Under the pieces are notes generated by a model that had not been told where the DNA came from, searched no databases, and worked only from the letters and a program-made list of their open reading frames with translations. DNA of 64,000 nt. Origin: Candidatus Aerophobetes bacterium Ae_b3a. Lineage in GTDB: Bacteria > Aerophobota > Aerophobia > Aerophobales > AE-B3A. The position numbers were made by a program, and so were the translations under genes. Positions 12,510 through 64,000 of the stretch are shown here, piece by piece (within the stretch, counting starts at the first letter, position 1; each line of letters starts with the position of its first letter). Location: positions 8,408-72,407 of the forward strand of contig NJBQ01000001.1 of the NCBI GenBank assembly GCA_005223095.1, given 5' to 3'.

Positions 12510-12884
12510 ATTAGTTGAGAGAGATTATTTAGCCTACACCAAACTTGACAAGCATACCTATTTGTCTTATACTACCAAATGATGAAGATAGACAAAGGTG
12601 AGCTTCTAGAGAAGCTAAGTCAGACAAATTTATGGCAAAACTTGTCTGCAGAAGAGGTTAGAGTATATCTGCTTCTCATAATCTGTGCTGATGAAATAAG
12701 TGGAAGGTTCTGATTTTAGTGAAGACTCAGGATATACCCTAATGAAATTTCTTCTGGGTAGAAGCAATCTTCCTACAGCAGGTGACAGTTTATAACTTGA
12801 GTTAAGAAGACGGATAATTTAGGGGTTAAGGAGCTAAAAATGAGGCCGGAGGGAGGTGAGAAGTAGGTAGACCATTAGCTGGGG
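12510..12884 (+). promoter_or_regulatory. conserved promoter-plus-leader element, copy A: TTGACA(12544-12549)-17-TATACT(12567-12572), then a ~300-nt conserved 5' leader for the downstream family-5 SBP operon
   Basis: Near-identical to the reverse complement of 47929-48312, which occupies the same position relative to the second SBP gene. Contains the dyad AGCTTCT-AG-AGAAGCT, the hairpin CAGACAA-N14-TTGTCTG and a purine-rich GGAGGGAGGTGAGAAG block. Confidence 0.6.
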
Positions 12885-12978
12885 CAAAGCTTTGTAAAAG
12901 GGAAGCGTTAAATAATTGAATTTCCTTTTTGTAAGCTTTCAGGGAAAAATGAACTAGGTCAAAAAGGAGGAATATCCA

Positions 12979-14886
12979 ATGAAGAAAAGTTGGCTACTGG
13001 TGAGTTTTATCGTAGGCCTTAGTGTGGTTCTTCTGTCAAGCGTGGCGGCGTTCTCACAGCTTCCGCCGGGCATACCGCGACATGAAACGGTGATGATAGA
13101 TCAAATTTTTAGATACAGCGTTACTAATAACTTCAACCTCTGGACGCCAGGAGCAGGATCTACACCCACCAGACAGGGACTTGTATGCGATACCCTGTGG
13201 TATATAGACCAACAGACGGGTGAGTGGATCAACGCTTTAGCCAAAGAGCCACCCATTTACAGTGAGGATTTTACCAAAATGAGTGTGAAACTGAGGAAAG
13301 GAATCTACTGGAGCGACGGAGTCGAGTTCACGGCCGACGATGTTGTATTTACGGTTAAGAATCTAACCAGTCATCCTGCGATGATGTGGGGCACCGAACT
13401 CGAGCTCTATGTTGAGGATGTTCATAAGGTCGACGATTATACAGTTGTTTTTGAATTGACGAAGCCTTACTCGAGGTTTCACAATGTTTTCACTGCCCGG
13501 TATTACGCCGTCTACATCATGCCAAAACATATCTGGGAGAAAGTAGAAAAGCCTATGGAATTTACCTTTTATCCTCCTGTCTCTTTAGGCCCCTATATTC
13601 TGAAGGATGCAGATTCAGCAGGATACTGGGAACTTTTTGAAAGGAGAGAGGACTGGGAGAGAACAAGCGTTGGAAAAGTTACTGGCATGCCACCAGCACC
13701 AAAATATTTCCTGACTATTTTCTACGGTCCCAGTGAGAAGAAGGTTATGGCTATGTCAAAGCACGAGCTGGACTTGTTTATGAATGTCGATTATGAAGCT
13801 TTCAAGAGTCTCCTGGAAAAAGACTCCTATGCTCGTTCCTGGTACAAGGATTACCCGTGGGCATGGCCTGATGAACTTGATGGCAGACGGTTCGGCTTTA
13901 ACCTTGAGAAATTCCCCTACCATATAAAGGATGTTAGGTGGGCTTTGGCACTGGCCCTGGATATAGTAGATCTACAAACAGAATACCTCGGTGGAGTAAC
14001 TAGAGTTACTCCGATTCCCCAACCTGCAACTCCGTTCCACATGAAAAACTACCACAAGCCTCTGGAACCGTGGCTCAGGGAGTTCAAGATTGAGGCTGAG
14101 GAAGGCGTCTATTTCAAGCCCTACGATGAGACTGTGCCATATCAGATTGCCGAGTGGGCTAAAAAACAAGGATACTCAGTACCCAGCGAACCAGAAGATA
14201 TGAAAGATATGTTTGGTGTTGGATGGTGGAAGCACGCTCCCGACGTATCGGAGAAGCTACTCAAGAAGCATGGCTTCAAGAGGAATGCGCAAGGCAAATG
14301 GTTGCTTCCAGATGGTACTCTCTGGAAATTCAAAATTATAGCTGCACCCGATGAGGTAGATGTCTTTCGACTCGCACTTGGCGCTGTTGACCAGTGGAGA
14401 GAGTTCGGGATAGAGGTAGAGGTTTCGACACTGGAAAGGGATCCTTATTATACCTCTAACTCTCTGGGAGACTTCACTTGTACCTCTGCTTGGGGTGGTG
14501 CTTATACCGCTACGGCCGTACTGGATAAATGGCCGTTCATATACAGCTTCCATTCCAAGTTTTATAGACCAACTGGAGAGAGGTCGGTTTCGACTTTTAC
14601 CAATAGCGAGAGAATAAAATCTGAAGAACTTGACCGACTCATAGATGAGATGGAAAAGTTTCCTCCTAACGATCCGAAAACTCCGGAGCTGGTGAAGGAG
14701 TTTATGAAATTGTGGGTCGAGAATATGTGGTCGATCTGTACCGTTAGCTTCAAGAAATTCGTCACCCAAGATGAGTACTACTGGACTCACTTTCCCACCG
14801 CTGATGATCCATACGGGCAACCCTGCTACTGGTTCATGGGAGGTAGGTTCATACTCCCGCATCTTAAGGCTACGGGAAGAAAGTAG
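12979..14886 (+). CDS. ABC transporter substrate-binding protein, family 5 (DppA/OppA-type), secreted
   Basis: Signal peptide MKKSWLLVSFIVGLSVVLLSSVAAFSQ. 635 aa with family-5 SBP architecture. AGGAGG RBS. Confidence 0.85.
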   Translation: MKKSWLLVSFIVGLSVVLLSSVAAFSQLPPGIPRHETVMIDQIFRYSVTNNFNLWTPGAGSTPTRQGLVCDTLWYIDQQTGEWINALAKEPPIYSEDFTKMSVKLRKGIYWSDGVEFTADDVVFTVKNLTSHPAMMWGTELELYVEDVHKVDDYTVVFELTKPYSRFHNVFTARYYAVYIMPKHIWEKVEKPMEFTFYPPVSLGPYILKDADSAGYWELFERREDWERTSVGKVTGMPPAPKYFLTIFYGPSEKKVMAMSKHELDLFMNVDYEAFKSLLEKDSYARSWYKDYPWAWPDELDGRRFGFNLEKFPYHIKDVRWALALALDIVDLQTEYLGGVTRVTPIPQPATPFHMKNYHKPLEPWLREFKIEAEEGVYFKPYDETVPYQIAEWAKKQGYSVPSEPEDMKDMFGVGWWKHAPDVSEKLLKKHGFKRNAQGKWLLPDGTLWKFKIIAAPDEVDVFRLALGAVDQWREFGIEVEVSTLERDPYYTSNSLGDFTCTSAWGGAYTATAVLDKWPFIYSFHSKFYRPTGERSVSTFTNSERIKSEELDRLIDEMEKFPPNDPKTPELVKEFMKLWVENMWSICTVSFKKFVTQDEYYWTHFPTADDPYGQPCYWFMGGRFILPHLKATGRK

Positions 14887-14899
14887 CCTTAATAATTAT

Positions 14900-14930
14900 C
14901 CCCCCTCCCTCAGGGAGGGGGGATTTCTGT
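14900..14930 (+). terminator. GC-rich hairpin CCCCCCTCCC-tca-GGGAGGGGGG followed by ATTTCTGT (terminator-like; member of the GC-palindrome repeat family)
   Basis: Perfect 10-bp stem directly after the SBP stop codon, with a T-rich tail on the + strand. Confidence 0.45.
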
Positions 14931-23592: not shown

Positions 23593-23748
23593 TCTTAACC
23601 TCGATTTTAGCGTTAATATCTGGTGTTTTTCATATTTTCCACTATCGTGTTGCCATTGCCAGGCGAAGCCGAAGCAATCCCATGAGATTGCCACGCTTGT
23701 TTTCAGCAAGTTCGCAATGACGGAAAACAGGGATCTATACGCTAAACG

Positions 23749-24942
23749 CTATCCGCTATCTACTATTCCACTTACCTGCTCTACATCCTTATCGCCCCGT
23801 CCAGACAGATTAACCACCACTATCTTATCCTTGTCCAATTCAGGCACCAGTTTGCTTAGATAGGCAATAGCATGGGCACTTTCCAGGGCTGGAATGATTC
23901 CCTCCAGTTCAGATAGAGTTTGAAAAGCTTTCAGCGCCTCCCTGTCATTAACGGTAACATATTTGGCTCTGCCGATTTTTTTAAGATGGGAGTGTTCTGG
24001 TCCAACTCCTGGATAATCCAGGCCAGCAGCCACTGAGTGAGTTAGGCTGATTTGTCCATATTTATCTTGCAGTAGATAGCTTTTTGCTCCATGCAGTATA
24101 CCGATGCTCCCTCGAGCTAGGGTGGCTCCGTGTTTATCTTCTGAAAGATCTAGCCCTCCTGCTTCCACTCCAATTAATTGCACAGCATCTTCCAGAAAAG
24201 GGTAAAAGAGCCCCAGGGAATTACTGCCTCCTCCCACACAGGCTACCAGATAGTCAGGCACTCTTTTCTCTTTGAGCAGAATTTGTTCTTTTGTTTCCTT
24301 GCCTATGACTGATTGAAAATCCCGCACCATCATAGGATAGGGGTGAGGTCCCACTACTGAGCCCAGAACATAATAAGTAGTTCTGACATTGGTTACCCAA
24401 TCTCTAATGGTTTCATTGATTGCATCCTTTAAAGTACAGCTTCCTGAGGAAACAGGAATTACTTCTGCACCTAATAACTCCATTCTAAATACATTAAGTC
24501 GCTGCCGTCTAATATCCTCATCTCCCATATATACTCTACAGGGAAGCCCTAATACAGCGGCAGCCGTAGCTGTGGCTACCCCATGTTGACCAGCTCCAGT
24601 TTCAGCAATAATACGTTTTTTGCCCATTCTTTTAGCTAGAAGTACCTGTCCCAGAGTATTATTGATTTTATGAGCTCCGGTATGGGCCAGGTCTTCTCTT
24701 TTAAGATAAATCTTAGCTCCAGCTAAGCTTTTGGTTAGTCTTTCGGCAAAATAAAGTGGCGTGGGGCGACCAGCATAATCGGCTAAATATTTCTCTAATC
24801 TCTTATGAAAATCTTTATCTTCTTTTGCTTCTGAATAAGCCTCCTCTAATTCTTTCAGAGCAGGCATAAGTGTTTCGGGAACAAATTTTCCTCCGAAGGC
24901 TCCAAAATGTCCTTTTTTATCGGGCAGACTATGATGCTCCAT
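23749..24942 (-). CDS. trpB: tryptophan synthase beta subunit (TrpB1)
   Basis: [16 protein letters not shown], the PLP lysine region HTGAHKINN, and GGGSN. Confidence 0.9.
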
Positions 24943-25561: not shown

Positions 25562-25651
25562 ATTGCGTTAATTAACCCCTCACCTTAATCCTCTCCCCCA
25601 AGGGGAGAGGGAATTTCTTTTTTCGAGCAACGAATTTCGATTCACCATTCA

Positions 25652-27571: not shown

Positions 27572-27616
27572 TTTTTTTCGGTCCTATACGCTAAACGCTA
27601 CCCGCTATACGCTATA

Positions 27617-29712: not shown

Positions 29713-29880
29713 TAATTTGCCCCCTCACCCTACTCCCCCAAGGGGGGAGAGGGTGTTTTCTTTTCTTGCCAGTGACTAGCAAGTAGTGACAAGCGACGAA
29801 TTTTGAGGAATGTCCTTCGGTACAGATGCAAATTCCTCTGATTCAAGTAGATGTAGCTAGAGAGGAATAATAAGCAGAAC

Positions 29881-38081: not shown

Positions 38082-39052
38082 TTATCTTTCTCTTCTTTAT
38101 CCTCTTTTCCCCAGATTCTATCGAAGTCCGCCTCTTCTCCTGTTTTCTGTGGTTCTTCTATCTCCATACGCCATATATCCATATCTTCTTCTTTGGGCTC
38201 TGTTCCATTAATAATATAATTAGAAAAGGCAAATGAGTTCTGGTAGGTTCCTCTGTATCCAATAATAATGGCCTTAAGATTCTCAGATTTTTCAAAGGAT
38301 TGAGCTATTGGCTCCCACTCTCTGGATAGTCTTTTTTCTTCTTGCAGGAGGCGTTGGCTTAAATAAGATTTTCTTTCTACCTTGGGTGTCTTATTAAATT
38401 CTTCCTCTATCTTTTTCAGCTTGATACTCTTCTTTTTAAAGTAAGCTAACAATCCTTTATCCAGGGATAGATATTTACGGAAAAAGCGTCTTTCGGCAGG
38501 ATAAGCACCTATCTGAAAGAAAGGAGAGGTAAATTTACCTAGGTCAGCTAGCCAGGGAACTATCACTCCACAAATAACATCGCCAAAAACGAAATAGAAC
38601 CCCCCCAGCACCGCAGTGATTTTAGGAGTGGAGTAAGTACTGGCGATAACTGCCCATCCAATTATTTCTGTTAAGATACCATATTTCATAGCTCGCTCAA
38701 TAGCATACTTTCTTAATTTTTGTACTTCTTCTTGTTGAACAGGATTAATTTTTATTCTACCACCTCTAAATTCCTTTTCAAAACCATTGGTCAAATATCG
38801 GATGAAGTCTTCCTTTCTATTTCTGATGTTTATTTCAAGAAGATATTTTATCCTTTCAGTCAGAACTTTAAAGTGTTGGTAGCTTCTTTCCCTATCCTGG
38901 TATTCAATCAGTACTATAGCATTACAATCACTGTCATTTCCATAGATTCTTGATTGAAGCTCGAGCTGATTTCTTACTTCGAAGAATCTGCCATCCAGAT
39001 ATACTCCAATCCCTTTACCTAACTCATCATCAAGCTCTTTTATTCTCATCAC
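38078..39052 (-). CDS. hypothetical membrane protein (two central TM helices), part of the AAA+/vWA operon
   Basis: 324 aa. Hydrophobic pair GILTEIIGWAVIASTYSTPKITAVLGGFYFVFGDVICGVIVPWLADL. Acidic C-terminus. 4-nt overlaps on both sides. Confidence 0.4.
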   Translation of the reverse strand: MMRIKELDDELGKGIGVYLDGRFFEVRNQLELQSRIYGNDSDCNAIVLIEYQDRERSYQHFKVLTERIKYLLEINIRNRKEDFIRYLTNGFEKEFRGGRIKINPVQQEEVQKLRKYAIERAMKYGILTEIIGWAVIASTYSTPKITAVLGGFYFVFGDVICGVIVPWLADLGKFTSPFFQIGAYPAERRFFRKYLSLDKGLLAYFKKKSIKLKKIEEEFNKTPKVERKSYLSQRLLQEEKRLSREWEPIAQSFEKSENLKAIIIGYRGTYQNSFAFSNYIINGTEPKEEDMDIWRMEIEEPQKTGEEADFDRIWGKEDKEEKDK

Positions 39053-39603
39053 TGAGCACCGATAAATATCCTGATAAATTCTTGTTCAAAGACTCTTCTA
39101 GAAATGGCCAGGGGAATAAAGCGGAGAAGTTCTTCTATGCCAGTTGATATTTTTGTCTTTACCCGCATAAGAGTTGATATGTTTCTGCCTTTCTTAAAAC
39201 AGTAAATTCTTCCTTTTATCTCTCTGTCATCAAACACATAGGAATGAGTTAATCCTGACTTTTCTAGCTTTTCCCCCGCCTTTTTTTGTTCCTGAAGTAT
39301 TGTTTCCTCCTTGGATAGCTTAGCAAAGGAGAGATAAAGACCATCAATCCGTAGTCTCCCTTCCTTTTCCAAATAGGCAATTTCCTCTCTTTTGTTGTCA
39401 TATACCTTGATGCCACTCCTGGCAGGATAAAATGTCTCCAGGTAGCCTTTTATTCCTTGCGGAGTCTTTACTTCCAGCACTAGAGGTAGCTTCTTTTCTT
39501 TTAGGATAAAGTCGCCATCTATATAACCCAGCAGTCTGCTATCTTTCTCTATCTTTAGTAGGTGCGTTCTATTTTGGTTGGTTCTAATGATATATCGGTT
39601 CAT
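39049..39603 (-). CDS. hypothetical protein (184 aa), first gene of the AAA+/vWA operon
   Basis: Starts MNRYII, sharing the MNRYI start with the AAA+ protein's N-terminal extension. No recognisable catalytic motif. Confidence 0.4.
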   Translation of the reverse strand: MNRYIIRTNQNRTHLLKIEKDSRLLGYIDGDFILKEKKLPLVLEVKTPQGIKGYLETFYPARSGIKVYDNKREEIAYLEKEGRLRIDGLYLSFAKLSKEETILQEQKKAGEKLEKSGLTHSYVFDDREIKGRIYCFKKGRNISTLMRVKTKISTGIEELLRFIPLAISRRVFEQEFIRIFIGAQ

Positions 39604-39689
39604 TAAATCGTCGCCATTCTCGTATTGCGTCGTGCGTGATGCGTATTGCGCAATATGAAATACGAAAAGCGTAAATATTCACCGAACGA

Positions 39690-45724: not shown

Positions 45725-45790
45725 TTAATTAGGAGGGGGAAGGATATCCTTCCCCCTCCTACATTTCTTTCCTTTGTCCCTTTCCCTTGT

Positions 45791-47851
45791 TTATTTCTCC
45801 TCATAGGTTGGAATTACCCCCGGGAGAAGTTCAGGCTTTTGCTCCTCCTTGGGAACCCAAAGCTGCCATGCACATTGAGCCACATCGAACCATTCATACA
45901 TGTAAGGTGGAGTACCGGGTGGAACGTTCCTCAGTCTATTGGCAATTGCATTACCCACCTGCATCTTATAGAGGCCAATCGTGTAAACGTTTTCAGTCCA
46001 TAAATTTTGAATTTCTGAGAATGTTTCCCTTACCTTTGAACCAGATCTCTCAGTTTTTAGTGAGTTTATCAGATCTCTTAAGCGAGCCTCAAAGGGAAAT
46101 AGGTCTCTTTCCCCCCCTGGTCCAGCCTGGTGCCAGGTAGGAGTAATCTCGGTTACAGGCCCAAGGTCGGTTAATCTTGTCAGGGGAGTAAGACACAACA
46201 CATTATCACGATATATAGGTATCTCAAGTTCTCCACTGTCGGATAGAGCATCGTAAGTTGTGGTCTTGATGACTTTAAGAACAGACTTAATACCAGCTTC
46301 CCTAAGGTAGGGAACTAAGGCCTCTCCTAAGTTCACGGCTGCGGTTTCGTCTTCAACGATATGGATTACAAGGGTTAAATCCTGACCAGCTAATGGAGTA
46401 CCTGTAGCCCACTCCATTATACCATCGCCATCGATGTCCTTAAATCCCAGCTCTGCAAACAAACCTTTTGATTTTTCCAGATCATAAGCATAGGTGACGA
46501 TAGCATCGGGATCATAATATGGAGAAGAGTCAACCAGACTACCTTCATACGGTGCAATTAGAGGTCCTGGGAAAATTGAGTTTGTTATTCCCTCCCGGTT
46601 AATGGCGTAGGATAAAGCTTTTCTAAACCTGGGATCTCTGAATAACTCTCTCATGGCTCGGTCTCTCTCCGTCTTCACCCCTTTGTAAAGTGAAAAATTT
46701 GGCTGCAAACTAAACGAAGCGTTATAACCCACAAATCGAGCCACAAAGTAGGAGTCTGACCTCCGTGCTTCTTCCAGGGCAAAAGAGAAAACCCCCGGTG
46801 TTTCTAGGTTGGTATAATCAATACTTCCGGCTATCACATTTAAGGTTCTGGTTATCCCTCTTCTTCCCTTTTCAATATAAGCCTCGTTAAAATAGGGAAG
46901 TTGTTGTCCTTTCTCATCCACCTTCCAGTAGTAAGGATTTCTCCTGGCCACTATGAATCTTGCCGGTTCGAATTTTACTGGCACCCAAGGACCGAGCGTT
47001 ACCACCGGAAGATCCTCAGGAGGTAGGGAATGAATGAAGCCTTCGTAAGTAGCATCTGGATTGTATTTTGGATGATGCTTTGCTAGAACATGCTTGGGAA
47101 CTGGTGCCAAACCGTAGCGGCCCATGCGGAAAAGAATGTATAGAGGGAAGCCTGCCCCAAAACGCCACCTGATGGTATACTTATCTACCTTTTCCAGTTC
47201 GGTTAATTTTCCGTTTATTGTCCATGCGCCCGCGCCGAGGAAGGAAGGAATATGGGAATCTAAATGGCAGTCGTAATATGTAAACAGGACATCATCAGCC
47301 GTGAATTCCACTCCATCCGACCACTTTGCTCCTTCAAGCAGATGCATGGTAAGGGTCTTGCCATCTTCGGACCATTCCCAACTGGTAGCTAAGTTTGGTA
47401 CAGGTTCAATGGGATTTTTTAGCATCCACATATGGGCGGGTTCCACCAGGCCTTCCCAGACAAGCACCTCGGTGCCCCACCAACCTGATGTTAATCCTGC
47501 TGCCCAGTTCCAGCCCGCGGTTGGAGACCCACAAAAGACCCTCCACTTATCACCATATACCCCTAGGCCGTCACTCATAACCTTAGACTTTATAACCTGG
47601 GGGTTCTTGGGCAATCTCTCCCACACTGGGGGAAGTTCCCCTTTGGCCACTGCCAACTCTAATGCCTCAGGTTCGATATAGTTCGGGAGGGCCTTGTACT
47701 CCATAATGTCACTGATTTCGAACTTGCCTAAAAAGCTCTCCTGAGCGATAGCCACTGCACTAAACGAGGCGATGAACATAAGCGCTATTAATATTGGCAT
47801 AACTCTCTTCATCTTAACCTCCGGAAAAACATATTTTCTTGCGTCATACAT
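45791..47851 (-). CDS. ABC transporter substrate-binding protein, family 5 (DppA/OppA-type), secreted
   Basis: Signal peptide MKRVMPILIALMFIASFSAVAIA. 686 aa. Paralogous to the SBP at 12979 but strongly diverged at the protein level. Confidence 0.85.
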   Translation of the reverse strand: MYDARKYVFPEVKMKRVMPILIALMFIASFSAVAIAQESFLGKFEISDIMEYKALPNYIEPEALELAVAKGELPPVWERLPKNPQVIKSKVMSDGLGVYGDKWRVFCGSPTAGWNWAAGLTSGWWGTEVLVWEGLVEPAHMWMLKNPIEPVPNLATSWEWSEDGKTLTMHLLEGAKWSDGVEFTADDVLFTYYDCHLDSHIPSFLGAGAWTINGKLTELEKVDKYTIRWRFGAGFPLYILFRMGRYGLAPVPKHVLAKHHPKYNPDATYEGFIHSLPPEDLPVVTLGPWVPVKFEPARFIVARRNPYYWKVDEKGQQLPYFNEAYIEKGRRGITRTLNVIAGSIDYTNLETPGVFSFALEEARRSDSYFVARFVGYNASFSLQPNFSLYKGVKTERDRAMRELFRDPRFRKALSYAINREGITNSIFPGPLIAPYEGSLVDSSPYYDPDAIVTYAYDLEKSKGLFAELGFKDIDGDGIMEWATGTPLAGQDLTLVIHIVEDETAAVNLGEALVPYLREAGIKSVLKVIKTTTYDALSDSGELEIPIYRDNVLCLTPLTRLTDLGPVTEITPTWHQAGPGGERDLFPFEARLRDLINSLKTERSGSKVRETFSEIQNLWTENVYTIGLYKMQVGNAIANRLRNVPPGTPPYMYEWFDVAQCAWQLWVPKEEQKPELLPGVIPTYEEK

Positions 47852-47928
47852 TACTCATTTTTCTGTGGAAAGCCCTAAAAACTAGAGAAAGGAATAGATC
47901 CTTCAACATTTCTCTTTTTAGATGCTTT

Positions 47929-48312
47929 CCTCATACCCCAGCTAACGACTTACTTGCTTCTCACCTCCCTCTGGCCTTATTTTTAGCTCTTTAACCCTTA
48001 AATTATCCGTCTTCTTAACTCAAGTTATAAACTGTCTCCTGCGGGAGGTCGAGCCGTCCAGTCTCTCATTATAAGCTTTTCCCCCAGCAGCACCTTTTTT
48101 GGCGTCCCTCTATCCTTCCACTTATTTCATCAGCGCAGATTATGAGAAGCAGATATACTCTAACCTCTTCTGCAGACAAGTTTTGCCATAAATTTGTCTG
48201 ACTTAGCTTCTCTAGAAGCTCACCTTTGTCTATCTTCATCACTTAACAGTATAAGATAAATAGGTATGCTTGTCAAGTCTCGTGTAGGCTAAATAATCTC
48301 TCTCAACTAATT
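47929..48312 (-). promoter_or_regulatory. conserved promoter-plus-leader element, copy B (minus orientation): -35 TTGACA at 48276-48271, 17-nt spacer, -10 TATACT at 48253-48248, then a ~300-nt conserved leader
   Basis: Reverse complement aligns with 12510-12884 at roughly 95% identity in two blocks, separated by a ~75-nt non-homologous central segment. Confidence 0.6.
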
Positions 48313-48454: not shown

Positions 48455-48482
48455 TTGACTTAGCCCCTGCTTATACTATACT
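48455..48482 (+). promoter_or_regulatory. candidate sigma-70-type promoter TTGACT-16-TATACT facing the family-1 SBP sugar operon (divergent from the copy-B promoter)
   Basis: Hexamers read directly from the sequence. A transcript from here would have a ~690-nt leader, so closer promoters cannot be excluded. Confidence 0.35.
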
Positions 48483-49177
48483 ATATATAGGTATTAAGTT
48501 ACTCGCTCTTAGATGATTACCTGGATTGCCAAAAAATCATCTTTGGTAACAAGGTATTGTTTCATACAAAATCAATATAAGATTCTCCCTTTCTCAAACC
48601 AGAACATAGTACCTCCATATATCACCAGAACCAGAGTTTTGGACCCCACCAGACAATAGACACCGCAGTTCACTTCTCAAAAAGTAGAGTTTACTTCTTT
48701 CTTATTAAGGTCATTGTTGATGATTGATCATAGATGAGACCTGGAAGAACGGATAAACTCCCTTAAGAATTCCAATCTTTGGTGTAATGTTATAGTATCG
48801 CAATTTTGATAATTTCTCTGGATCGTTATCAACCAAACCTCCTCAGGTAATAGCTCAGAAAAACGGGGGGAGCAGGCCGAAGGCCGTTGAGGGGGGATGT
48901 TTCCCCCCTCAATATGTTCATTGGGATATTCCCAATAATATAACTAGGCAAGAGGCAAGCAATAAAACAAATATTACTGAGATATGTCATATAGCATATT
49001 GTGAGAGTTTTAAAGAAACTAGCAAGAATAAAGGGTCTGAGGGGAGGTGAGAAATCGGGTAGGCCAAATCCAGCTTGGATAAAAGAAAGTTCTCAAAGAA
49101 AAAAGGAAAATGTTAGATAATTGCCTTTGTTGATGGGAGCTTTTAGAAAAAGTGAACTTTAAAAAAGGAGTATTAGG

Positions 49178-50458
49178 ATGATTAAGAAATGTGTTCATAT
49201 TGGGGTTATGGTATTAGTATTGACAGGACTGCTTTTTGGCATATCGAACTCCGCATTAGCACAGGAAAAGGTTACCTTAAGAACAATAGGAGGCCCAGAT
49301 CCTCATGGCTATGAGGCTGCCGAGGATAATTTGTTTGAGAAGGTTTCTCCCTGGATCAAAGTGGAAAGAACTACCGTTCCCTATGGAAGAGAGCAACGTC
49401 TGAAACTCATTGCTTCTTTCCGCAGTGCCAGACCGTATGACATGTACATAATTGACTGTGTGGAAGTTTCTGAGTATGCCAATGCTGGCTGGGCTTTGGA
49501 TGTAACAGAGCGGGTCACTCCAGAGATGAAAGAAGGTATTCTCCCATTTGCAGCAGACGGAATGATGTATCAGGGTCGCTGGTATGGTCTGCCTTGGATA
49601 TCTGAATGGAAGTCCTTTGTATATAATGCCCGTATGCTTAAAGAGGCTGGTTTTACAGGCCCTCCAAAGACATGGGATGAATTTGTGGAACAGAGCAAAA
49701 GACTACAGGCGGCTGGAATCGTCGAGAGATACGCAACGGCTTGGTCCTGGGCTCAAAAGGAGTGTTTGATTTGCGATTCTGTAGCGATTATGGCCAGCTT
49801 CGGTGGACAATTCTTTGATGAGGACCTTAATCCTGTGTTTAATAGTCAGGCAGGAGCGGAAGCTTTGCAGTGGATGATAGACTCTATGTACAAGCACAAA
49901 ATCTCTGATCAGGCGTCTCTTACCTTTACTGAGTCAGATGTAGATGCCCTTATGGAGGGAGGAAAAATTGCTTTCGAACTAAGATGGGGACTACCTCTGG
50001 TTATCCTCAACGATCCTAAGGCATCCAAGGTGGTGGATGAATGTAAGATAGGCCTGTTCCCGGCAAAAACTCTTGCTACCTACCCCGGCTACACTGTCTC
50101 TGGACCTATGGGGTGGAGCATCGCTCTTGATTCTCCACATAAAAACGAAGCTTGGGAATACGTGGAGTTTAGGGCTGGATTTGTAGGGGCAAAGAGAAAT
50201 GCTATCAAATACGGTGTATTTCCTGGTTGGATTTCTCTATATGAAGACCCTTCTGTAACCGATGCTATTCCTGGGCTAGATGTAATGCTAGAGTCTGGAA
50301 AACAGGTTGTGAACAGGCCGCGAGTCCCCTGGTATTACAAATTTTCTGATGCTCTCCAGTTGGAGTTACACAAAGCCATGACTCGGGCTAAAAGTCCGGA
50401 AAATGCACTTGACGATGCAGTAACTGAAACTCTAAAGATAAAGAGAGAGGCGGAATAG
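49178..50458 (+). CDS. ABC transporter substrate-binding protein, family 1 (sugar-binding), secreted
   Basis: Signal peptide MIKKCVHIGVMVLVLTGLLFGISNSALAQEK. 426 aa, typical size and composition for MalE/UgpB-type sugar binders. AAGGAG RBS. Confidence 0.8.
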   Translation: MIKKCVHIGVMVLVLTGLLFGISNSALAQEKVTLRTIGGPDPHGYEAAEDNLFEKVSPWIKVERTTVPYGREQRLKLIASFRSARPYDMYIIDCVEVSEYANAGWALDVTERVTPEMKEGILPFAADGMMYQGRWYGLPWISEWKSFVYNARMLKEAGFTGPPKTWDEFVEQSKRLQAAGIVERYATAWSWAQKECLICDSVAIMASFGGQFFDEDLNPVFNSQAGAEALQWMIDSMYKHKISDQASLTFTESDVDALMEGGKIAFELRWGLPLVILNDPKASKVVDECKIGLFPAKTLATYPGYTVSGPMGWSIALDSPHKNEAWEYVEFRAGFVGAKRNAIKYGVFPGWISLYEDPSVTDAIPGLDVMLESGKQVVNRPRVPWYYKFSDALQLELHKAMTRAKSPENALDDAVTETLKIKREAE

Positions 50459-50512
50459 GAATAGGAAGGGGTCCCGCTCTACAGGGGCCCCTTCTTTCTT
50501 AAAATCGTATAA

Positions 50513-54117: not shown

Positions 54118-55479
54118 TTATAAGATGTAGCGAGAAAGGTCTTCGCTCTCCACAATATTCTTGAGTCTCTCTTGCACATATTTAGCAGTAATAGTGAAAG
54201 ACCTCTTCCTTATATTAGCAGCCTTGAAGCTGATATCTTCTAGAAGCTTCTCCATAATGGTGTATAATCTTCTTGCTCCAATATCTTCTGTTCGTTCGTT
54301 CACCAAAAAAGCCAAAAGGGCGATTTCTTTGATAGAGCTATCCTTAAAAATAAGGTTTATTCCTTCTGTTTCTATCAGAGCTTGATATTGTTTAATCAAG
54401 GCATTTTTGGGTTCAGTCAAAATTTTTTCAAAATCGTTTTGGGTGAGTCTGTCCAGTTCTACCCGAATGGGGAATCTACCCTGCATTTCAGGAATCAAAT
54501 CAGAAGGAGAAGCAGAGTGGAAAGCTCCCGCTGCTATGAAGAGAATGTGGTCTGTCTTAATAGGTCCATATCTAGTAGCTACGGTAGTTCCTTCCACTAT
54601 TGGCAAAAGGTCTCTTTGCACTCCTTCTCGGGAGACATCTATCTTGTCTACTCCTCCTCCTACAACCTTATCTATTTCATCAACGAATATTATCCCCGAG
54701 TTCTCTACCCGATGAGTAGCGTCTTCAACAACCTTGTCCTTATCTATTAATTTTTGAGCCTCTTGCTCAGTGATGATTTGACGGGCTTCTTTTAGGGGGA
54801 CCTTTCTTTCCTTGGTACGTTTGGGGAGCATGTCTCCCAATAAATCCTGAAAGTTCATTCCCATTTGCTCTGTTCCAGCACTACTAAATATCTCTATCAT
54901 AGGAGTGAGTCTTTCCGTGGCTTTTATCTCAATTAATCTATCCTCTAGTTCCTTATTGTTTAATTTCTCTCTCAGTTTTTCTCTGGTCTTCTTTACCCTT
55001 TCTATTCTTTCCCCTTCTCCGCCTTCCTCTTGCTCCGCTGATGGTAAGGCCTTGGGAAGAGGTGGAAGGAGAATATCCAGAAGTCTTTCCTCAGCCAGTC
55101 TTCTCGCTTTCTTCCTTACTCTCTGTATCATCTCTCCTTGGATTGTGTGCACGGCCATGTTCATCAAATCTCTGACCATAGATTCCACATCTCTACCCAC
55201 ATAACCTACTTCAGTATACTTGCTTGCTTCTATCTTTAGAAAAGGAGCCTGGGCTAGTTGTGCTAATCTTCGCGAAATTTCTGTCTTTCCTACTCCAGTG
55301 GGGCCAATCATAATAATATTCTTAGGGGCTACCTCATCGCGCATCTTAGCAGGCAGCTTCTGACGACGCCATCTATTTCTTAAGGCGATAGCTACAGCAC
55401 GTTTAGCATCATCCTGCCCTATGATATATTTATCTAACTCCCTTACGATGGCGGGAGGAGTAAGTTGCTTTTCTCTCAT
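54118..55479 (-). CDS. hslU: ATP-dependent protease ATPase subunit HslU
   Basis: [34 protein letters not shown], Walker [12 protein letters not shown], and the I-domain insertion. 453 aa. Confidence 0.9.
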
Positions 55480-55499: not shown

Positions 55500-55670
55500 C
55501 TCGGACAATTTTCTTCCGTCACCATTCTCGTATCTCGTTGTTCGTATCTCGTATCTAGTGTAACGTATTGCACTATGCTTTTTAAAGCCTTTTTTCGAGA
55601 TACGAGATACTAGATACGATTCACGTTTCTTCAAGGAATGTCCTTCGGCAAACGTATAAGTTCCTAATAC
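55500..55670 (+). repeat. composite intergenic repeat between hslV and hslU: TCACCATTC, CGTATCTCG units as an imperfect long inverted repeat, and a GGAATGTCCTTCGG module
   Basis: The arms CGTATCTCGTATCTAGTG and CGAGATACGAGATACTAGATACG flank a T-rich centre. GGAATGTCCTTCGG also occurs at 29803-29817. CGTATCTCG also occurs at 31673-31683. Confidence 0.5.
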
Positions 55671-62602: not shown

Positions 62603-64000
62603 ATGACAGAGCAGACAAGATTGGTGGAAGAGAAGCTGGTAAAGGAAAGAAAAGATAAGCTTCAATTCTGGATAGAGAAAGAGGGGAATCCTTATCTGGC
62701 AAATTTTACTCCTCGCCATTCTGCCCAATGGATAAAGGATAACTATGAGGAGATAAAGCCAGGAGAAGAAACAGATACAGAGGTATGGATAGCAGGAAGG
62801 ATTATTACTTTGCGGGCTCATGGGAAAACGAGTTTTGCCGATATAAAAGACGAGAAGGGCAGAATTCAGGTTTATGCCAGGAAAGATGTGCTGGGTGAGA
62901 AATATACTCTCTTCCGGAAACTGGACCTGGGGGATATAATTGGGATAAAAGGTAAGGTCTTTAAGACAAGAACGGGTGAGGTAACCGTGCAAATTCTCCA
63001 ATTTTCTCTTCTGGCCAAGTCTCTTCGTTCTCTTCCAGAGAAGTGGCATGGACTACAGGATATAGAACTTCGCTACCGAAAACGCTACCTGGACCTATTA
63101 TCTAACCCTGAGGTGAAGACAGTCTTTTTACAGCGCGGACTAATAGTAAGATTAATAAGGGATTTTCTAAATCAAAGGGGATTTCTAGAAGTAGAAACTC
63201 CTATGATGCAGCCTATTGCTGGAGGGGCTACAGCCAGGCCCTTCAAAACTCATCATCAAGCTCTAAAACAGGACTTCTATCTACGCATTGCTCCCGAACT
63301 TTATCTTAAGAAATTGGTGGTGGGAGGGCTGGAAAAGGTCTATGAGCTAAATAGAAATTTCAGAAATGAAGGAATGGACAGATTCCACAACCCTGAATTC
63401 ACTATGCTGGAGGTCTATTCTGCTTATAGCGATTACACAAGAATGATGACTTTCACAGAGGAACTCATCTGTGAGATAGCAAAGAAGGCAAAAGGAACTC
63501 TAAAAATAGATTACCAGGGAAAGAAAATTAATCTTTCCCCTCCCTGGAAAAGGATAACCTTCAAGGATGCGCTTAAAGAGATAGGAGGGGTTGAGGTTGA
63601 TTATGATGATGAAAAAGAACTAAGAAAAGTAGCTAGGGAGTCTGGCTTAGAAGTAGAGGGGTTAAGAAACGAGCAGATAATGGAGCATCTCCTGGACAAA
63701 CATGTCGTTCCTGAGTTAATTCAACCCACATTCATATTTGATTACCCTTCTTCTACTTCTCCCCTGGCTAAGAGAAAAAAGGATAATCCCTCTTTAATAG
63801 AAAGGTTCGAAATATTTGTAGGAGGAGAGGAGCTAGGTAATGCTTACTCAGAATTAAATGACCCCCTTGAACAAAGAGAGCGATTATTAGAGGTGAAAAC
63901 AAGAGAAAACTCATTGGATGAGGATTTTTTGGAGGCATTGGAGTATGGGATGCCTCCTACCTCTGGTTTGGGGATAGGAATAGACCGAATGGTTATGCTT
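62603..64000 (+). CDS. lysS: lysine--tRNA ligase, class II (3' partial; runs off the window)
   Basis: Anticodon-binding OB-fold region (VWIAGRIITLRAHGKTSFADIKDEKGRIQVY). Class II motifs FRNEGMDRFHNPEFTMLE (motif 2) and GLGIGIDRMVML (motif 3). Absent from the ORF track because no stop falls within the window. Confidence 0.9.
   Translation, partial: MTEQTRLVEEKLVKERKDKLQFWIEKEGNPYLANFTPRHSAQWIKDNYEEIKPGEETDTEVWIAGRIITLRAHGKTSFADIKDEKGRIQVYARKDVLGEKYTLFRKLDLGDIIGIKGKVFKTRTGEVTVQILQFSLLAKSLRSLPEKWHGLQDIELRYRKRYLDLLSNPEVKTVFLQRGLIVRLIRDFLNQRGFLEVETPMMQPIAGGATARPFKTHHQALKQDFYLRIAPELYLKKLVVGGLEKVYELNRNFRNEGMDRFHNPEFTMLEVYSAYSDYTRMMTFTEELICEIAKKAKGTLKIDYQGKKINLSPPWKRITFKDALKEIGGVEVDYDDEKELRKVARESGLEVEGLRNEQIMEHLLDKHVVPELIQPTFIFDYPSSTSPLAKRKKDNPSLIERFEIFVGGEELGNAYSELNDPLEQRERLLEVKTRENSLDEDFLEALEYGMPPTSGLGIGIDRMVML

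Follow-up and report, generated by a model that had tools for sequence, protein, structure and literature searches.

The leader that precedes three solute-binding-protein (SBP) genes of the window, the whole 64,000-nucleotide stretch of DNA analysed here, is a member of an undescribed family of predicted structured RNAs, found almost only in Candidatus Aerophobetes. A census combining a pattern scan with a covariance model, carried out over genomes and sediment metagenomes, gave at least 124 copies, distributed over the metagenomes and 14 species-level genomes; almost all of these genomes carry the label Candidatus Aerophobetes. Its strand-specific placement, the covariation of its helices and their tolerance of G-U pairs argue for an element that acts at the RNA level, one of the options raised in the preliminary description of this DNA, and the reading of the element as a cis-acting structured 5′ leader RNA is well supported by these predictions. 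As to its function, we favour a leader with a decoy Shine-Dalgarno (SD) sequence, resembling the STAB-SD of Bacillus thuringiensis, which would stabilise or enhance SBP messages. We put the probability of this reading at about 0.45, and its main rival is a global regulatory RNA.

Three copies in the window and their relatives

The features of the window on which the analysis rests are as follows.

12510-12795, plus strand: region 5′ of copy A, with an inverted duplicate at 48049-48311; context, outside the RNA family; holds a predicted sigma-70-type promoter TTGACA-17-TATACT (12545-12573), a 44-aa ORF and remnants of a LacI-family gene
12827-12956, plus strand: leader copy A, whole model match (cmsearch 88.0 bits, E = 6e-22)
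12832-12837, plus strand: copy A, 5′ strand of P0, AGCTAA, pairing with 12875-12880 (RNAalifold; compensatory A-U to G-C change in relatives)
12844-12847, plus strand: copy A, 5′ strand of P1, GGCC, pairing with GACC at 12870-12873 with one C-A mismatch (fold)
12848-12869, plus strand: copy A, purine-rich P1 loop with the putative decoy SD core GGGAGGTGAGAA at 12851-12862 (sequence)
12875-12880, plus strand: copy A, 3′ strand of P0, TTAGCT (RNAalifold)
12886-12940, plus strand: copy A, long hairpin P2, AAAGCTTT..AAAAGGGAA / TTTCCTTTTT..AAGCTTT (predicted minimum-free-energy fold; covariation)
12941-12956, plus strand: copy A, conserved A-rich tail CAGGGAAAAATGAACTA (alignments)
12966-12981, plus strand: real SD of SBP gene A, GGAGG at 12966-12970, with ATG at 12979 (sequence)
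12979-14886, plus strand: SBP gene A (SBP_bac_5), heading an ABC operon that ends in a GH78 rhamnosidase (Pfam)
14898-14924, plus strand: GC-rich hairpin directly 3′ of SBP gene A (-28.6 kcal/mol, z = -5.1; also found by a terminator scan)
45730-45761, minus strand: 14-bp GC-rich hairpin directly 3′ of SBP gene B (-32.9 kcal/mol, z = -5.9)
45791-47812, minus strand: SBP gene B (SBP_bac_5), GGAGG at 47818-47822, heading an ABC operon that ends in a GH4 glycosidase
47851-47993, minus strand: leader copy B, whole model match (cmsearch 88.6 bits, E = 4e-22)
47867-47930, minus strand: copy B, hairpin P2 (predicted fold)
47973-47976 / 47947-47950 and 47983-47988 / 47940-47945, minus strand: copy B, arms of P1 and of P0, respectively (mapped structure)
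47951-47972, minus strand: copy B, P1 loop with the putative decoy SD core at 47958-47969 (sequence, mapped structure)
49016-49159, plus strand: leader copy C, whole model match, divergent subtype (cmsearch 38.7 bits, E = 4e-8)
49034-49037 / 49062-49065 and 49021-49027 / 49069-49075, plus strand: copy C, arms of P1 and of P0, respectively (mapped structure)
49038-49061, plus strand: copy C, P1 loop with the putative decoy SD core at 49042-49053 (sequence, mapped structure)
49085-49144, plus strand: copy C, hairpin P2, AAAGTTCTC..AAAAAAGG / CCTTTGTT..GGGAGCTTT (predicted fold)
49178-50458, plus strand: SBP gene C (SBP_bac_1), real SD AGGAG at 49166-49170, heading an ABC operon with a GH4 glycosidase
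50459-50498, plus strand: GC-rich hairpin and T-rich tail directly 3′ of SBP gene C (-25.7 kcal/mol, z = -6.3)

The preliminary description had noticed a purine-rich block of about 45 nt before the three SBP genes, and the block is indeed present at each of them. The similarity of the three copies extends well beyond it, nearly to the real ribosome-binding site. The 12-mer GGGAGGTGAGAA has exactly three matches in the 64 kb, at 12851-12862 (+), 47958-47969 (-) and 49042-49053 (+), all in sense orientation and 128-157 nt 5′ of an SBP start codon. When up to one mismatch is allowed, 0.4 matches are expected in the window, and three were reached in 1 of 100 shuffles. Likewise, three of the only five matches to GGAGGTGA in the window are copies A, B and C. 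The covariance model, which was built from relatives, recovers all three copies with the scores given above, and in the whole window it returned no further match below E = 0.07. The weakest-scoring match of the window (63799-63902) lies inside a probable lysyl-tRNA-synthetase coding region and was excluded from the family, as was a match at locus L009 (6675-6811) that overlaps the 3′ end of an SBP gene; both score far under the true copies.

Some positions given earlier need adjustment. The block of copy B, formerly placed at 47929-47965, is on the minus strand, where the conserved block spans 47936-47993, and the true start of SBP gene B is the ATG at 47812 rather than the start of the longest ORF. 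The interval of 75-145 nt to the start codon holds for the cores of copy A (128 nt) and copy C (136 nt), but not for that of copy B (157 nt). Copies A and B are not independent, because both lie inside an inverted duplication of 375 nt (12510-12884 versus 47936-48311) whose segments are 96% and 88% identical. The ORF of 44 or 57 aa upstream of A and B had no Pfam match. The divergent subtype of copy C also occurs at the ortholog locus L008, and at L032 and L049.

Beyond the window, the genome scan yielded 28 true loci in the 14 species-level genomes, with at most five per genome, and two chance matches. The metagenome scan gave more than 120 pattern matches, and among the matches listed the model recognised 93 copies in 80 loci, some of which carry two or three. 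All 124 copies are in sense orientation, and no antisense or intragenic copy occurs among the family members. The distinct downstream genes encode SBPs of six families in 67 of 92 cases (73%), so that the element is far from common irrespective of gene function; they include sugar, oligopeptide, amino-acid, TRAP and TTT binding proteins, along with some catabolic enzymes. A sugar regulon, as first suggested, is therefore too narrow a description. The element is also kept in orthologous operons of relatives: orthologs of SBP gene C with 89%, 70% and 69% protein identity retain it, and an ortholog at 57% identity, outside the lineage, has lost it. A phage or other mobile origin was considered and rejected, as two scans of viral contigs with the core patterns gave only chance matches, which fell in coding sequence or were genuine ribosome-binding sites with an ATG behind them.

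Leader architecture, covariation and transcript context

The full leader is about 140 nt long and is predicted to consist of a helix P0 (AGCUAA/UUAGCU) that encloses a second helix P1 (GGCC/GGCC), followed by the long hairpin P2 and the A-rich tail. The purine-rich motif is the loop of P1, 22-24 nt in size. While P2 and the A-rich tail are found in about 80% of the copies, a short form of about 75-95 nt, represented by 26 of the 124 copies (~22%), keeps P0 and P1 and has no P2; the P0/P1 module therefore presumably works alone. All three helices were recovered by RNAalifold from an alignment of six sequences. A plain MAFFT alignment of 20 sequences gave P1 alone, because P2 is misaligned in it, and P2 appears in the single-sequence minimum-free-energy fold of nearly every copy.

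The helices are maintained by compensatory changes. Among 77 distinct sequences, 90.8% of the cells pair, and 21 of the 32 base pairs show compensatory changes. Double-change cells number 95, against 37 +/- 6 in shuffled data; none of 500 shuffles was as high, and slid controls gave 20-63. A set of 32 sequences agrees with the larger one in its covariation. The pairs include 383 G-U and 106 A-C combinations, and this 3.6-fold excess points to the sense strand as the one that folds. Long-range pairing of the 5′ flank with the 3′ tail was also considered and rejected, as the duplex energies of matched and mismatched partners were nearly the same (-9.4 versus -9.0 kcal/mol, permutation p = 0.10).

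With respect to the gene, the element ends upstream of the start codon, at a median distance of about 27 nt, and the gene has a strong SD site of its own. Between the element and this real SD the spacing is anything from about -8 to over 300 nt, and the sequence of the linker varies too; the median distance from core to start codon is 136 nt. In some copies the best sigma-70-like promoters predict transcription to begin about 10-30 nt upstream of P0, the score threshold being met by 27% of the upstream regions versus 16% of shuffles. Some leaders begin only 20-60 nt past an upstream gene on the same strand, e.g., a LacI-family gene. Such leaders may sit inside longer transcripts, an arrangement compatible with processing of the cry3A type. 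At the other end of the gene, a predicted hairpin below -20 kcal/mol is found within 80 nt of the stop codon in 58% of 96 leader-associated genes versus 2 of 44 other genes of the window.

The putative decoy Shine-Dalgarno loop and competing explanations

The loop core RGGRGGUGA is complementary to the anti-SD tail of 16S rRNA, and GGGAGGUGA is common to all three window copies. The preliminary description had seen in this core an SD sequence remote from any start codon, and the family bears this out: 84 of 92 distinct loops, copy A included, have no ATG, GTG or TTG 4-10 nt past GGAGG in a sequence-level test. The invariance of GGGAGGTG is partly imposed by the search pattern, and the number of intact loops free of that pattern is 15. 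These come from 17 copies that were found by the model only, two of which have no loop (L114 and L091, one degenerate tandem copy in two metagenomes); GG[A/G]GGUGA is kept in 14 of the other 15. Where the core varies, A or G stands exactly opposite a predicted U of the 16S partner. The real downstream SD sites of the leader genes are of the AAAGGAG type, and therefore the canonical anti-SD is probably in use. The predicted probability of being unpaired is only moderate for the decoy SD (mean 0.61), close to that of the real SD (0.56), and does not discriminate between them. Two candidate coding functions were set aside. An upstream mini-ORF (GUG, 2-3 codons, UAG/UAA) is in frame in 74 of 111 loops, which is an enrichment but an inconsistent one, and its GUG overlaps the SD and leaves no usable spacing. 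The ATG of the conserved tail (AAAATGAAC) is not preceded by an SD, and neither the frame nor the length of a leader peptide starting there is conserved.

The ability of the loop to pair, together with the absence of a start codon in most copies, leads us to infer that the loop serves as a decoy (standby) site where 30S subunits would bind close to the message's 5′ end. A standby site was among the mechanisms originally proposed, and as a reading of the sequence it is still the leading one. The P1 loop would pair with 8-11 nt of the 16S rRNA 3′ tail, and the bound 30S subunit, together with the P0/P1 stem, would shield the message against decay from its 5′ end. A further possible effect is that more ribosomes are at hand locally for the real downstream site. 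In combination with the strong 3′ hairpin, the leader would thus give a long-lived and highly translated binding-protein message, and the permease genes downstream, which appear to be without SD sites, would be weakly translated.

Under the main rival, a global regulatory RNA, the leader would act as a riboswitch or as the place where a trans-acting factor docks, and through it one signal would gate the whole solute-uptake repertoire. Starvation or carbon status is a candidate signal, and candidate factors are a CsrA-like GGA-binding protein, another RNA-binding protein, or a small RNA with an exposed CCUCC-like (UCACCUCCC-like) seed. The helices of the leader covary while its long unpaired stretches are invariant (the A-rich junction, the 22-nt loop, UUAGCUGGG and the tail), a combination typical of ligand- or protein-binding RNAs. 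The distribution is regulon-like as well, with one element before related genes of six SBP families and catabolic enzymes. Each leader contains four GGA sites, in the P1 loop, at both bases of P2 and in the real SD, two of which are base-paired, and P2 and the tail are conserved although a plain stabiliser would leave them without a role. However, no expression platform was found: P2 does not run into a U-tract, and neither the length nor the sequence of the linker to the real SD is constant. Short forms are entirely without P2, and LacI-family or ROK-type regulators adjoin several copies, so that specific transcriptional control is already present. For the version with CsrA, a tblastn search of 1.25 Mb turned up neither CsrA nor Hfq, in a sample too small to be informative, and the loop is an exact complement of the anti-SD, which is more than CsrA needs. 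On balance we consider a global regulatory RNA unlikely, if worth serious attention. Still less likely, in our estimation, is its most far-reaching form, a phylum-specific riboregulator (a starvation or energy riboswitch, or the dock of one master RNA-binding factor) that gates nearly the whole uptake repertoire; its scope would take in ABC, TRAP and TTT binding proteins and the first catabolic enzymes, with the decoy SD loop as the recognition surface, and this extension we likewise doubt.

Three other explanations fit the family poorly. In the anti-anti-SD switch of the preliminary description, the purine block and the real SD would compete for a pyrimidine-rich anti-SD strand and so open or close translation. 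Decoy and real SD do share their purine-rich character, and in full-length copies the strands UUUCUCUUU and GCUUUCC could pair with GGAGG-type sequences, but both minimum-free-energy and consensus folds have these strands already paired, with covariation, to the 5′ strand of P2 rather than to the decoy or the real SD. The 26 copies that keep P0 and P1 have no P2 pyrimidine strand at all, and the spacing to the real SD is variable; hence we give the switch very little credence. The shared operator that had been offered as an alternative, or a promoter module read by one transcription factor or alternative sigma factor, could draw on the conservation of sequence 5′ of P0 in many copies (GAAGTTAGATCTTTGGCAAGGGAAGAGCT), on the palindromic DNA at the base of P2 (GGAAAGCTTTCC) and on AGGTGA and AGGTAG, which resemble a direct repeat 11 nt apart. 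Against such a DNA element stand the sense orientation of 124 of 124 copies, their consistent placement before start codons, the ratio of G-U to A-C pairs (383 versus 106) and the separation of the helix arms by about 37 nt. Moreover, covariation couples one arm of a helix to the other across about 37-100 nt instead of preserving each as a palindrome of its own, as can be seen at L045 (GAAAGCCTC/GAGGCTTTC) and in copy C (AAAGTTCTC/GGGAGCTTT). The spacing of TGGCAAGGGAAGAGCT fits the GG-N10-GC of sigma-54, but a sigma-54 promoter (TGGCA-N-GCT) was rejected: its -12 GC would fall inside the covarying P0, a start within P1 would destroy P0, copies A and B lack the GG and have TAGGG in place of TGGCA, and predicted sigma-70-type promoters lie further upstream. 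A DNA element thus appears highly improbable. Almost as improbable is a selfish or passive repeat, i.e., a promoter/leader cassette or MITE-like unit copied by recombination, whose purine loop has no dedicated function. The element is multi-copy with 70-90% identity among the copies of one genome, it is a frequent site of contig breaks (L033, L008, L029 and L112), the homology of copy B to close relatives ends exactly at its 5′ edge, and the DNA upstream of copy B has been replaced by a copy of the region upstream of A. A passive repeat does not account for helices kept by compensatory base changes, for the strict link to orientation, position and gene class (73% SBP), or for retention at orthologous loci down to 69% protein identity, and neither terminal inverted repeats nor target-site duplications were seen at the copies.

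Relation to known leaders and significance

The closest parallel to a decoy-SD leader is the STAB-SD of cry3A in Bacillus thuringiensis, an SD-like sequence about 125 nt 5′ of the start codon that binds 30S subunits and blocks RNase J1, and at which a transcript from -558 is trimmed to -129 (Agaisse & Lereclus 1996; Mathy et al. 2007; PMC4113751). The Aerophobetes leader resembles it in several respects. In both, an SD sequence fully complementary to the anti-SD lies about 125-135 nt upstream of the start codon, within the 5′ untranslated region; translation does not start at it, here as judged from the letters of the loops; the promoter may be several hundred nt upstream, a strong one being predicted about 300 nt upstream of copies A and B; and the genes concerned are linked to very high expression. 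In contrast to STAB-SD, which is a bare 9-nt sequence, the Aerophobetes SD is set in a hairpin loop whose stems (P0/P1) are conserved and covary, and in most copies another long conserved hairpin and a tail come after it. It also belongs to a family of at least 124 copies tied to one gene class, in an uncultured phylum with periplasmic-type binding proteins rather than in a Firmicute. P0, P2, the conserved apical loop of P2 and the conserved A-rich tail would be superfluous for a simple STAB-SD.

Other systems share parts of this arrangement. According to work attributed to Emory, Bouvet and Belasco (1992), the 5′ UTR of Escherichia coli ompA, about 130 nt long, reportedly combines a 5′ stem-loop with ribosome binding and is said to keep the mRNA for a highly abundant envelope protein from decaying from its 5′ end, in that case through RNase E. 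The Aerophobetes leader is similar in its long 5′ UTR, in a stem-loop near the predicted 5′ end and in the proposed binding of ribosomes; it differs in being multi-copy and in carrying a decoy SD, whereas ompA is a single gene with no decoy SD, and the two have no similarity of sequence or structure. In the standby model of de Smit and van Duin, exemplified by tisB, an accessible upstream 30S site raises initiation downstream. Such sites are usually unstructured stretches beside a structured ribosome-binding site and are not conserved SD sequences. The Aerophobetes leader likewise has a candidate 30S site upstream of the real ribosome-binding site, but folding is not predicted to hide its real SD to any great extent. 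In the malE-malF operon, intercistronic REP hairpins were reportedly found (Newbury and co-workers, 1987) where the binding protein outweighs the membrane components, and the Aerophobetes operons are comparable in that the binding-protein gene comes first and has a strong hairpin 3′ of it. Known cases of differential stabilisation of the cistrons of ABC operons use 3′ hairpins only, and as far as the libraries show we know of no conserved 5′ leader shared across many ABC operons. Structured 5′ UTR RNAs upstream of ABC-transporter genes are represented in Rfam by the msiK and malK motifs and the ykkC subtypes. Unlike these, the present leader has no counterpart there: Rfam 15 gave no match at gathering thresholds in the whole window, and two copies searched up to E = 10 gave only chance-level snoRNA and miRNA matches, none of them relevant.

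Aerophobetes are uncultured and dominant in some deep marine sediments. A new family of predicted structured RNAs with at least 124 examples, which marks the SBP genes of this whole phylum, is of practical as well as mechanistic interest. For genome annotation, the covariance model offers a way to pick out high-priority uptake genes of Aerophobetes, and the leader is a candidate portable expression or stability element. To our knowledge, STAB-SD has been documented only in Firmicutes with RNase J1, and we know of 30S subunits parked on a start-less SD and protecting a message only from single genes of that group. If the decoy-SD leader is indeed a stabiliser, the STAB-SD principle would reach beyond the Firmicutes, as a structured module deployed genome-wide, with the binding-protein cistron enclosed between the 5′ leader and the 3′ hairpin. 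Should the leader instead be a global switch, control of an entire uptake repertoire by a single RNA element would make it a rarity. As a decoy-SD stabiliser, the leader would allow extremely slow-growing, energy-limited cells to keep their nutrient-scavenging messages long-lived.

Leader copies in the window and in related genomes

The window is chromosomal (trp operon, rpsI, hslUV, xerC and topA are present) and shares 99.2% identity over 6 kb with a contig of 'Candidatus Aerophobetes bacterium E44_bin3' (SOJT01). The 64 kb contain the sequence GGGAGGTGAGAA at exactly three places, where 0.4 matches are expected with up to one mismatch, and three of the five occurrences of GGAGGTGA fall at the same sites. 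Each of the three sites lies in sense orientation 5' of an ABC-transporter operon whose first gene encodes a solute-binding protein (SBP). We refer to these leaders as copies A, B and C.

12851-12862, plus strand: GGGAGGTGAGAA of copy A
12979..14886: SBP gene A (SBP_bac_5), first gene of operon A, followed by two permeases, two ATPases and a GH78 rhamnosidase
47958-47969, minus strand: GGGAGGTGAGAA of copy B
47812..45791: SBP gene B (SBP_bac_5), first gene of operon B, followed by two permeases, two ATPases and a GH4 enzyme
49042-49053, plus strand: GGGAGGTGAGAA of copy C
49178..50458: SBP gene C (SBP_bac_1), first gene of operon C, followed by two permeases and a GH4 enzyme
14898-14924, 45730-45761 and 50459-50498: GC-rich hairpins (-26 to -33 kcal/mol) directly 3' of SBP genes A, B and C, respectively

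The three purine-rich blocks of the preliminary description were found as it described them, with two corrections: the block of copy B lies elsewhere than it had placed it, at 47936-47993 of the minus strand, and SBP gene B has its true start at the ATG at 47812, just behind a GGAGG. Copies A and B both lie within a 375-nt inverted duplication (12510-12884 versus 47936-48311; identity 96% and 88%) and are therefore not independent witnesses. Copy C is an independent one, and its likeness to copy A spans the purine block to nearly the real ribosome-binding site.

The motif is kept, downstream blocks included, in operons with SBP gene C orthologs at 89%, 70% and 69% protein identity (L008, L009, L010); an ortholog from another lineage at 57% identity (L011) has a LacI gene in place of the element. 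One genome per species was scanned with the pattern GCTARAAN{2,6}GGYYNRAN{0,1}GGGAGGTGRRAR, for which about one chance match is expected. Of the 30 loci obtained, 28 clearly belong to the family; they come from 14 genomes, none with more than five. The two others (Chloroflexia, Prosthecobacter) are chance matches. The identical pattern found at least 120 stretches in JGI metagenomes. A covariance model of the leader family, R1, was built on six copies and searched in the 80 metagenome loci listed. It gave 96 matches at E <= 0.001, including second and third copies per locus missed by the pattern, and the 93 with E < 1e-6 were kept, the whole analysed set comprising 124 copies. Viral contigs gave chance matches only, and an Rfam search gave no match. 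Some related genomes, L023 among them, are labelled 'uncultured Clostridia'; this label is unreliable for L023, which is 97.8% identical to the window. Five contigs (L033, L008, L029, L112, L053) start or stop within the leader or at its edge, as is expected when assemblers break at a multi-copy repeat, and the number of copies per genome is therefore underestimated.

A covarying sense-strand RNA with an exposed Shine-Dalgarno-like loop

The leader consensus reads aGCTAAAAAtaaGGccagAGGGAGGTGAnaaagnagntAGgccntTAGCtngg..aaaggaaagctttcc..aaagagaaaag-(apical loop gtgttgaaagattaa)-tttctcttt..ggagctttcc-acagaaaaatgaacaatgtc. When six sequences were folded with RNAalifold, three helices emerged: an outer helix P0 (AGCUAA/UUAGCU), an inner hairpin P1 (GGCC/GGCC) closing a purine loop of 22-24 nt, and a long bipartite 3' hairpin P2, which is followed by an A-rich tail. 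P2 appears in nearly all single-sequence folds despite the sequence differences among copies (AAAAGGGAA/UUUCCUUUUU in copy A, GAGGAAG/UUUCCUC in L039, GAAAGCCUC/GAGGCUUUC in L045).

The leader is a conserved, covarying RNA read from the sense strand. Across 77 distinct sequences aligned to the model, 90.8% of the cells are paired, a value that this fitting inflates, and 21 of the 32 pairs show compensatory changes. Double-change cells number 95, against 37 +/- 6 after shuffling (none of 500 shuffles as high) and 20-63 with slid partners; a 32-sequence set concurs. Compensatory changes are also visible in the raw sequences, P0 being GCUAGA/UCUAGC in L008, L021, L032 and L049 for GCUAAA/UUUAGC. 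The excess of G-U over A-C cells (383 versus 106) favours an RNA of the sense strand over a DNA palindrome or an antisense RNA. Short forms, 26 of the 124 copies, keep only P0 and P1 5' of a real ribosome-binding site (e.g., L024, L025), which marks these helices with the purine loop as the core module. In L114 (1921-2462) and L091 (10157-10698), two leaders stand in tandem about 410 nt apart with a 43-codon ORF between them, the second copy having lost the purine loop and kept P2.

Because the search pattern forced GGGAGGTG, unbiased evidence on the loop comes only from the 17 copies that just the model detected. Two of these have lost it, and GG[A/G]GGUGA is kept in 14 of the remaining 15 (as GGGAGGUGA, AAGGAGGUGA or AAGGGGGUGA; the sole exception is GGAGAUGA). 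A and G interchange at exactly the positions that would lie opposite a U of the canonical 16S tail, 3'-UUUCCUCCACU-5', and those opposite C or A are invariant, as anti-Shine-Dalgarno (anti-SD) pairing predicts; up to 11 contiguous pairs can form. The real downstream sites are of the AAAGGAG type, which indicates that the host uses the canonical anti-SD. No start codon lies 4-10 nt 3' of GGAGG in 84 of the 92 distinct loops. The loop exposes a complement of the anti-SD that lacks a start codon.

Genes and signals around the leaders

An ORF with its own Shine-Dalgarno (SD) site follows 112 of the 124 copies, starting at a median of about 27 nt past the model end and 136 nt past the loop core. 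These ORFs form 92 clusters (at least 60% identity), of which 67 (73%) encode extracytoplasmic SBPs by Pfam: SBP_bac_1 (38), SBP_bac_5 (17), Peripla_BP_4 (6), Peripla_BP_6 (4), DctP (1) and TctC (1). Most of the others are catabolic enzymes such as dehydrogenases and isomerases. This range of families means that the leader is linked to binding proteins in general and not, as the preliminary description had it, to sugars alone. It is strongly associated with such genes and also with hairpins 3' of them: of 96 leader-associated genes, 58% have one of less than -20 kcal/mol no more than 80 nt from the stop codon, compared with 2 of 44 other window genes. In the window, the 3' hairpins precede permease genes that lack SD sites.

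On the 5' side, a LacI-family gene on the same strand ends 30-60 nt before the leader in L026, L027, L044 and L050, and remnants of that gene precede copies A and B; the leader thus occurs alongside specific transcriptional regulators. Among sigma-70-like promoters, the best ones (TTGACA-16/17-AATAAT, TTGACC-16-TATATT) place the predicted transcription start 10-30 nt before P0; the signal is weak overall, with 27% of upstream regions at the score threshold versus 16% of shuffles. Copies A and B also have a near-consensus promoter, TTGACA-17-TATACT, about 300 nt upstream. It is carried by the part of the inverted duplication at 12510-12795 / 48049-48311 (96% identity over the main 198-nt arm), together with a 44/57-aa ORF (MMKIDKGELLEKLSQTNLWQNLSAEEVRVYLLLIICADEISGR...) fused to the LacI-family remnants. 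As that gene is intact 5' of the leader in L026 (5942..7036), both SBP_bac_5 operons seem to have lost a local repressor. Operons B and C are separated by a 1.3-kb divergent region with short ORFs only, another promoter-like site (TTGACT-16-TATACT at 48455; region 48455-48860) and a 12-bp G/C hairpin, GTTGAGGGGGGATGTTTCCCCCCTCAAT (48886-48913), about 100 nt 5' of leader C.

Other repeats were seen in the window. Two arrays of five 7-nt units NNUAGCG lie in the trp operon, at 27584-27615 and 23735-23766 (-). One stands between the trpG stop and the start of trpD, which lacks an SD site (UAUAGCG UAUAGCG GGUAGCG UUUAGCG UAUAGGA), and the other where trpB meets trpA. Apart from their 7-nt period, both are reminiscent of the (G/U)AG arrays to which the TRAP attenuation protein binds. 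Repeated, terminator-like hairpins of the CTCCCCCAAGGGGAGAGGG type (25593-25623, 29733-29763) flank both ends of the trp cluster. Heptamer arrays NNNUACG (e.g., AGAUACG AGAUACG AACAACG AGAUACG) lie at 39609-39646 and 55517-55554 (-), directly 5' of the gene 39049..39603 and of hslU (54118..55479), respectively; at hslU, an inverted upstream copy (55595-55620) could pair with the array as a long hairpin.

A possible decoy or standby site and its rivals

We tentatively propose, with a probability of about 0.45, that the leader acts through its SD-like loop. The P1 loop would bind 30S subunits near the mRNA 5' end as a decoy or standby site; with the P0/P1 stem, it would shield the message from 5'-end decay or supply ribosomes to the real site, and the 3' hairpin would bound a stable binding-protein message. 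The decoy-SD mechanism leaves P2, the conserved apical loop and the tail unaccounted for. A global regulatory RNA, either a riboswitch or the partner of a protein or small RNA, is the serious rival, which we consider less likely. The invariance of long unpaired stretches and the regulon-like distribution speak for it, whereas an expression platform is missing, short forms exist and specific regulators adjoin the leaders.

Of the readings offered by the preliminary description, the standby site is retained in our proposal, and the two others fail. An anti-anti-SD switch is contradicted by the short forms and the variable spacing, and a shared DNA operator, like a sigma-54 promoter, by strand specificity, the covariation of helix arms with each other and the G-U excess. 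Covariation and gene-class specificity likewise defeat a selfish repeat. In close relatives (L023, L028, L033), operon B is 97-99% identical to the window, and this homology ends exactly at the 5' edge of leader B (47988-47993), with unrelated DNA beyond; the leader clearly marks a recombination or gene-conversion boundary.

Cis-acting 5' leaders with a start-less SD stabiliser are an already known kind. In the STAB-SD of cry3A (PMC4113751), the SD-like sequence lies at about -125, where it binds 30S subunits and stops RNase J1; trimming of a long transcript that begins at -558 ends there. Copies A and B, with their far-upstream promoter about 300 nt away, match this layout. A full-text literature search for Aerophobetes with an RNA motif found nothing; PMC6469976 gives the ecological background. 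The leader family differs from known start-less-SD stabilisers in that its SD lies in a covarying hairpin loop, that it is present in many copies per genome, and that it is dedicated to the binding-protein genes of an uncultured deep-sediment phylum.
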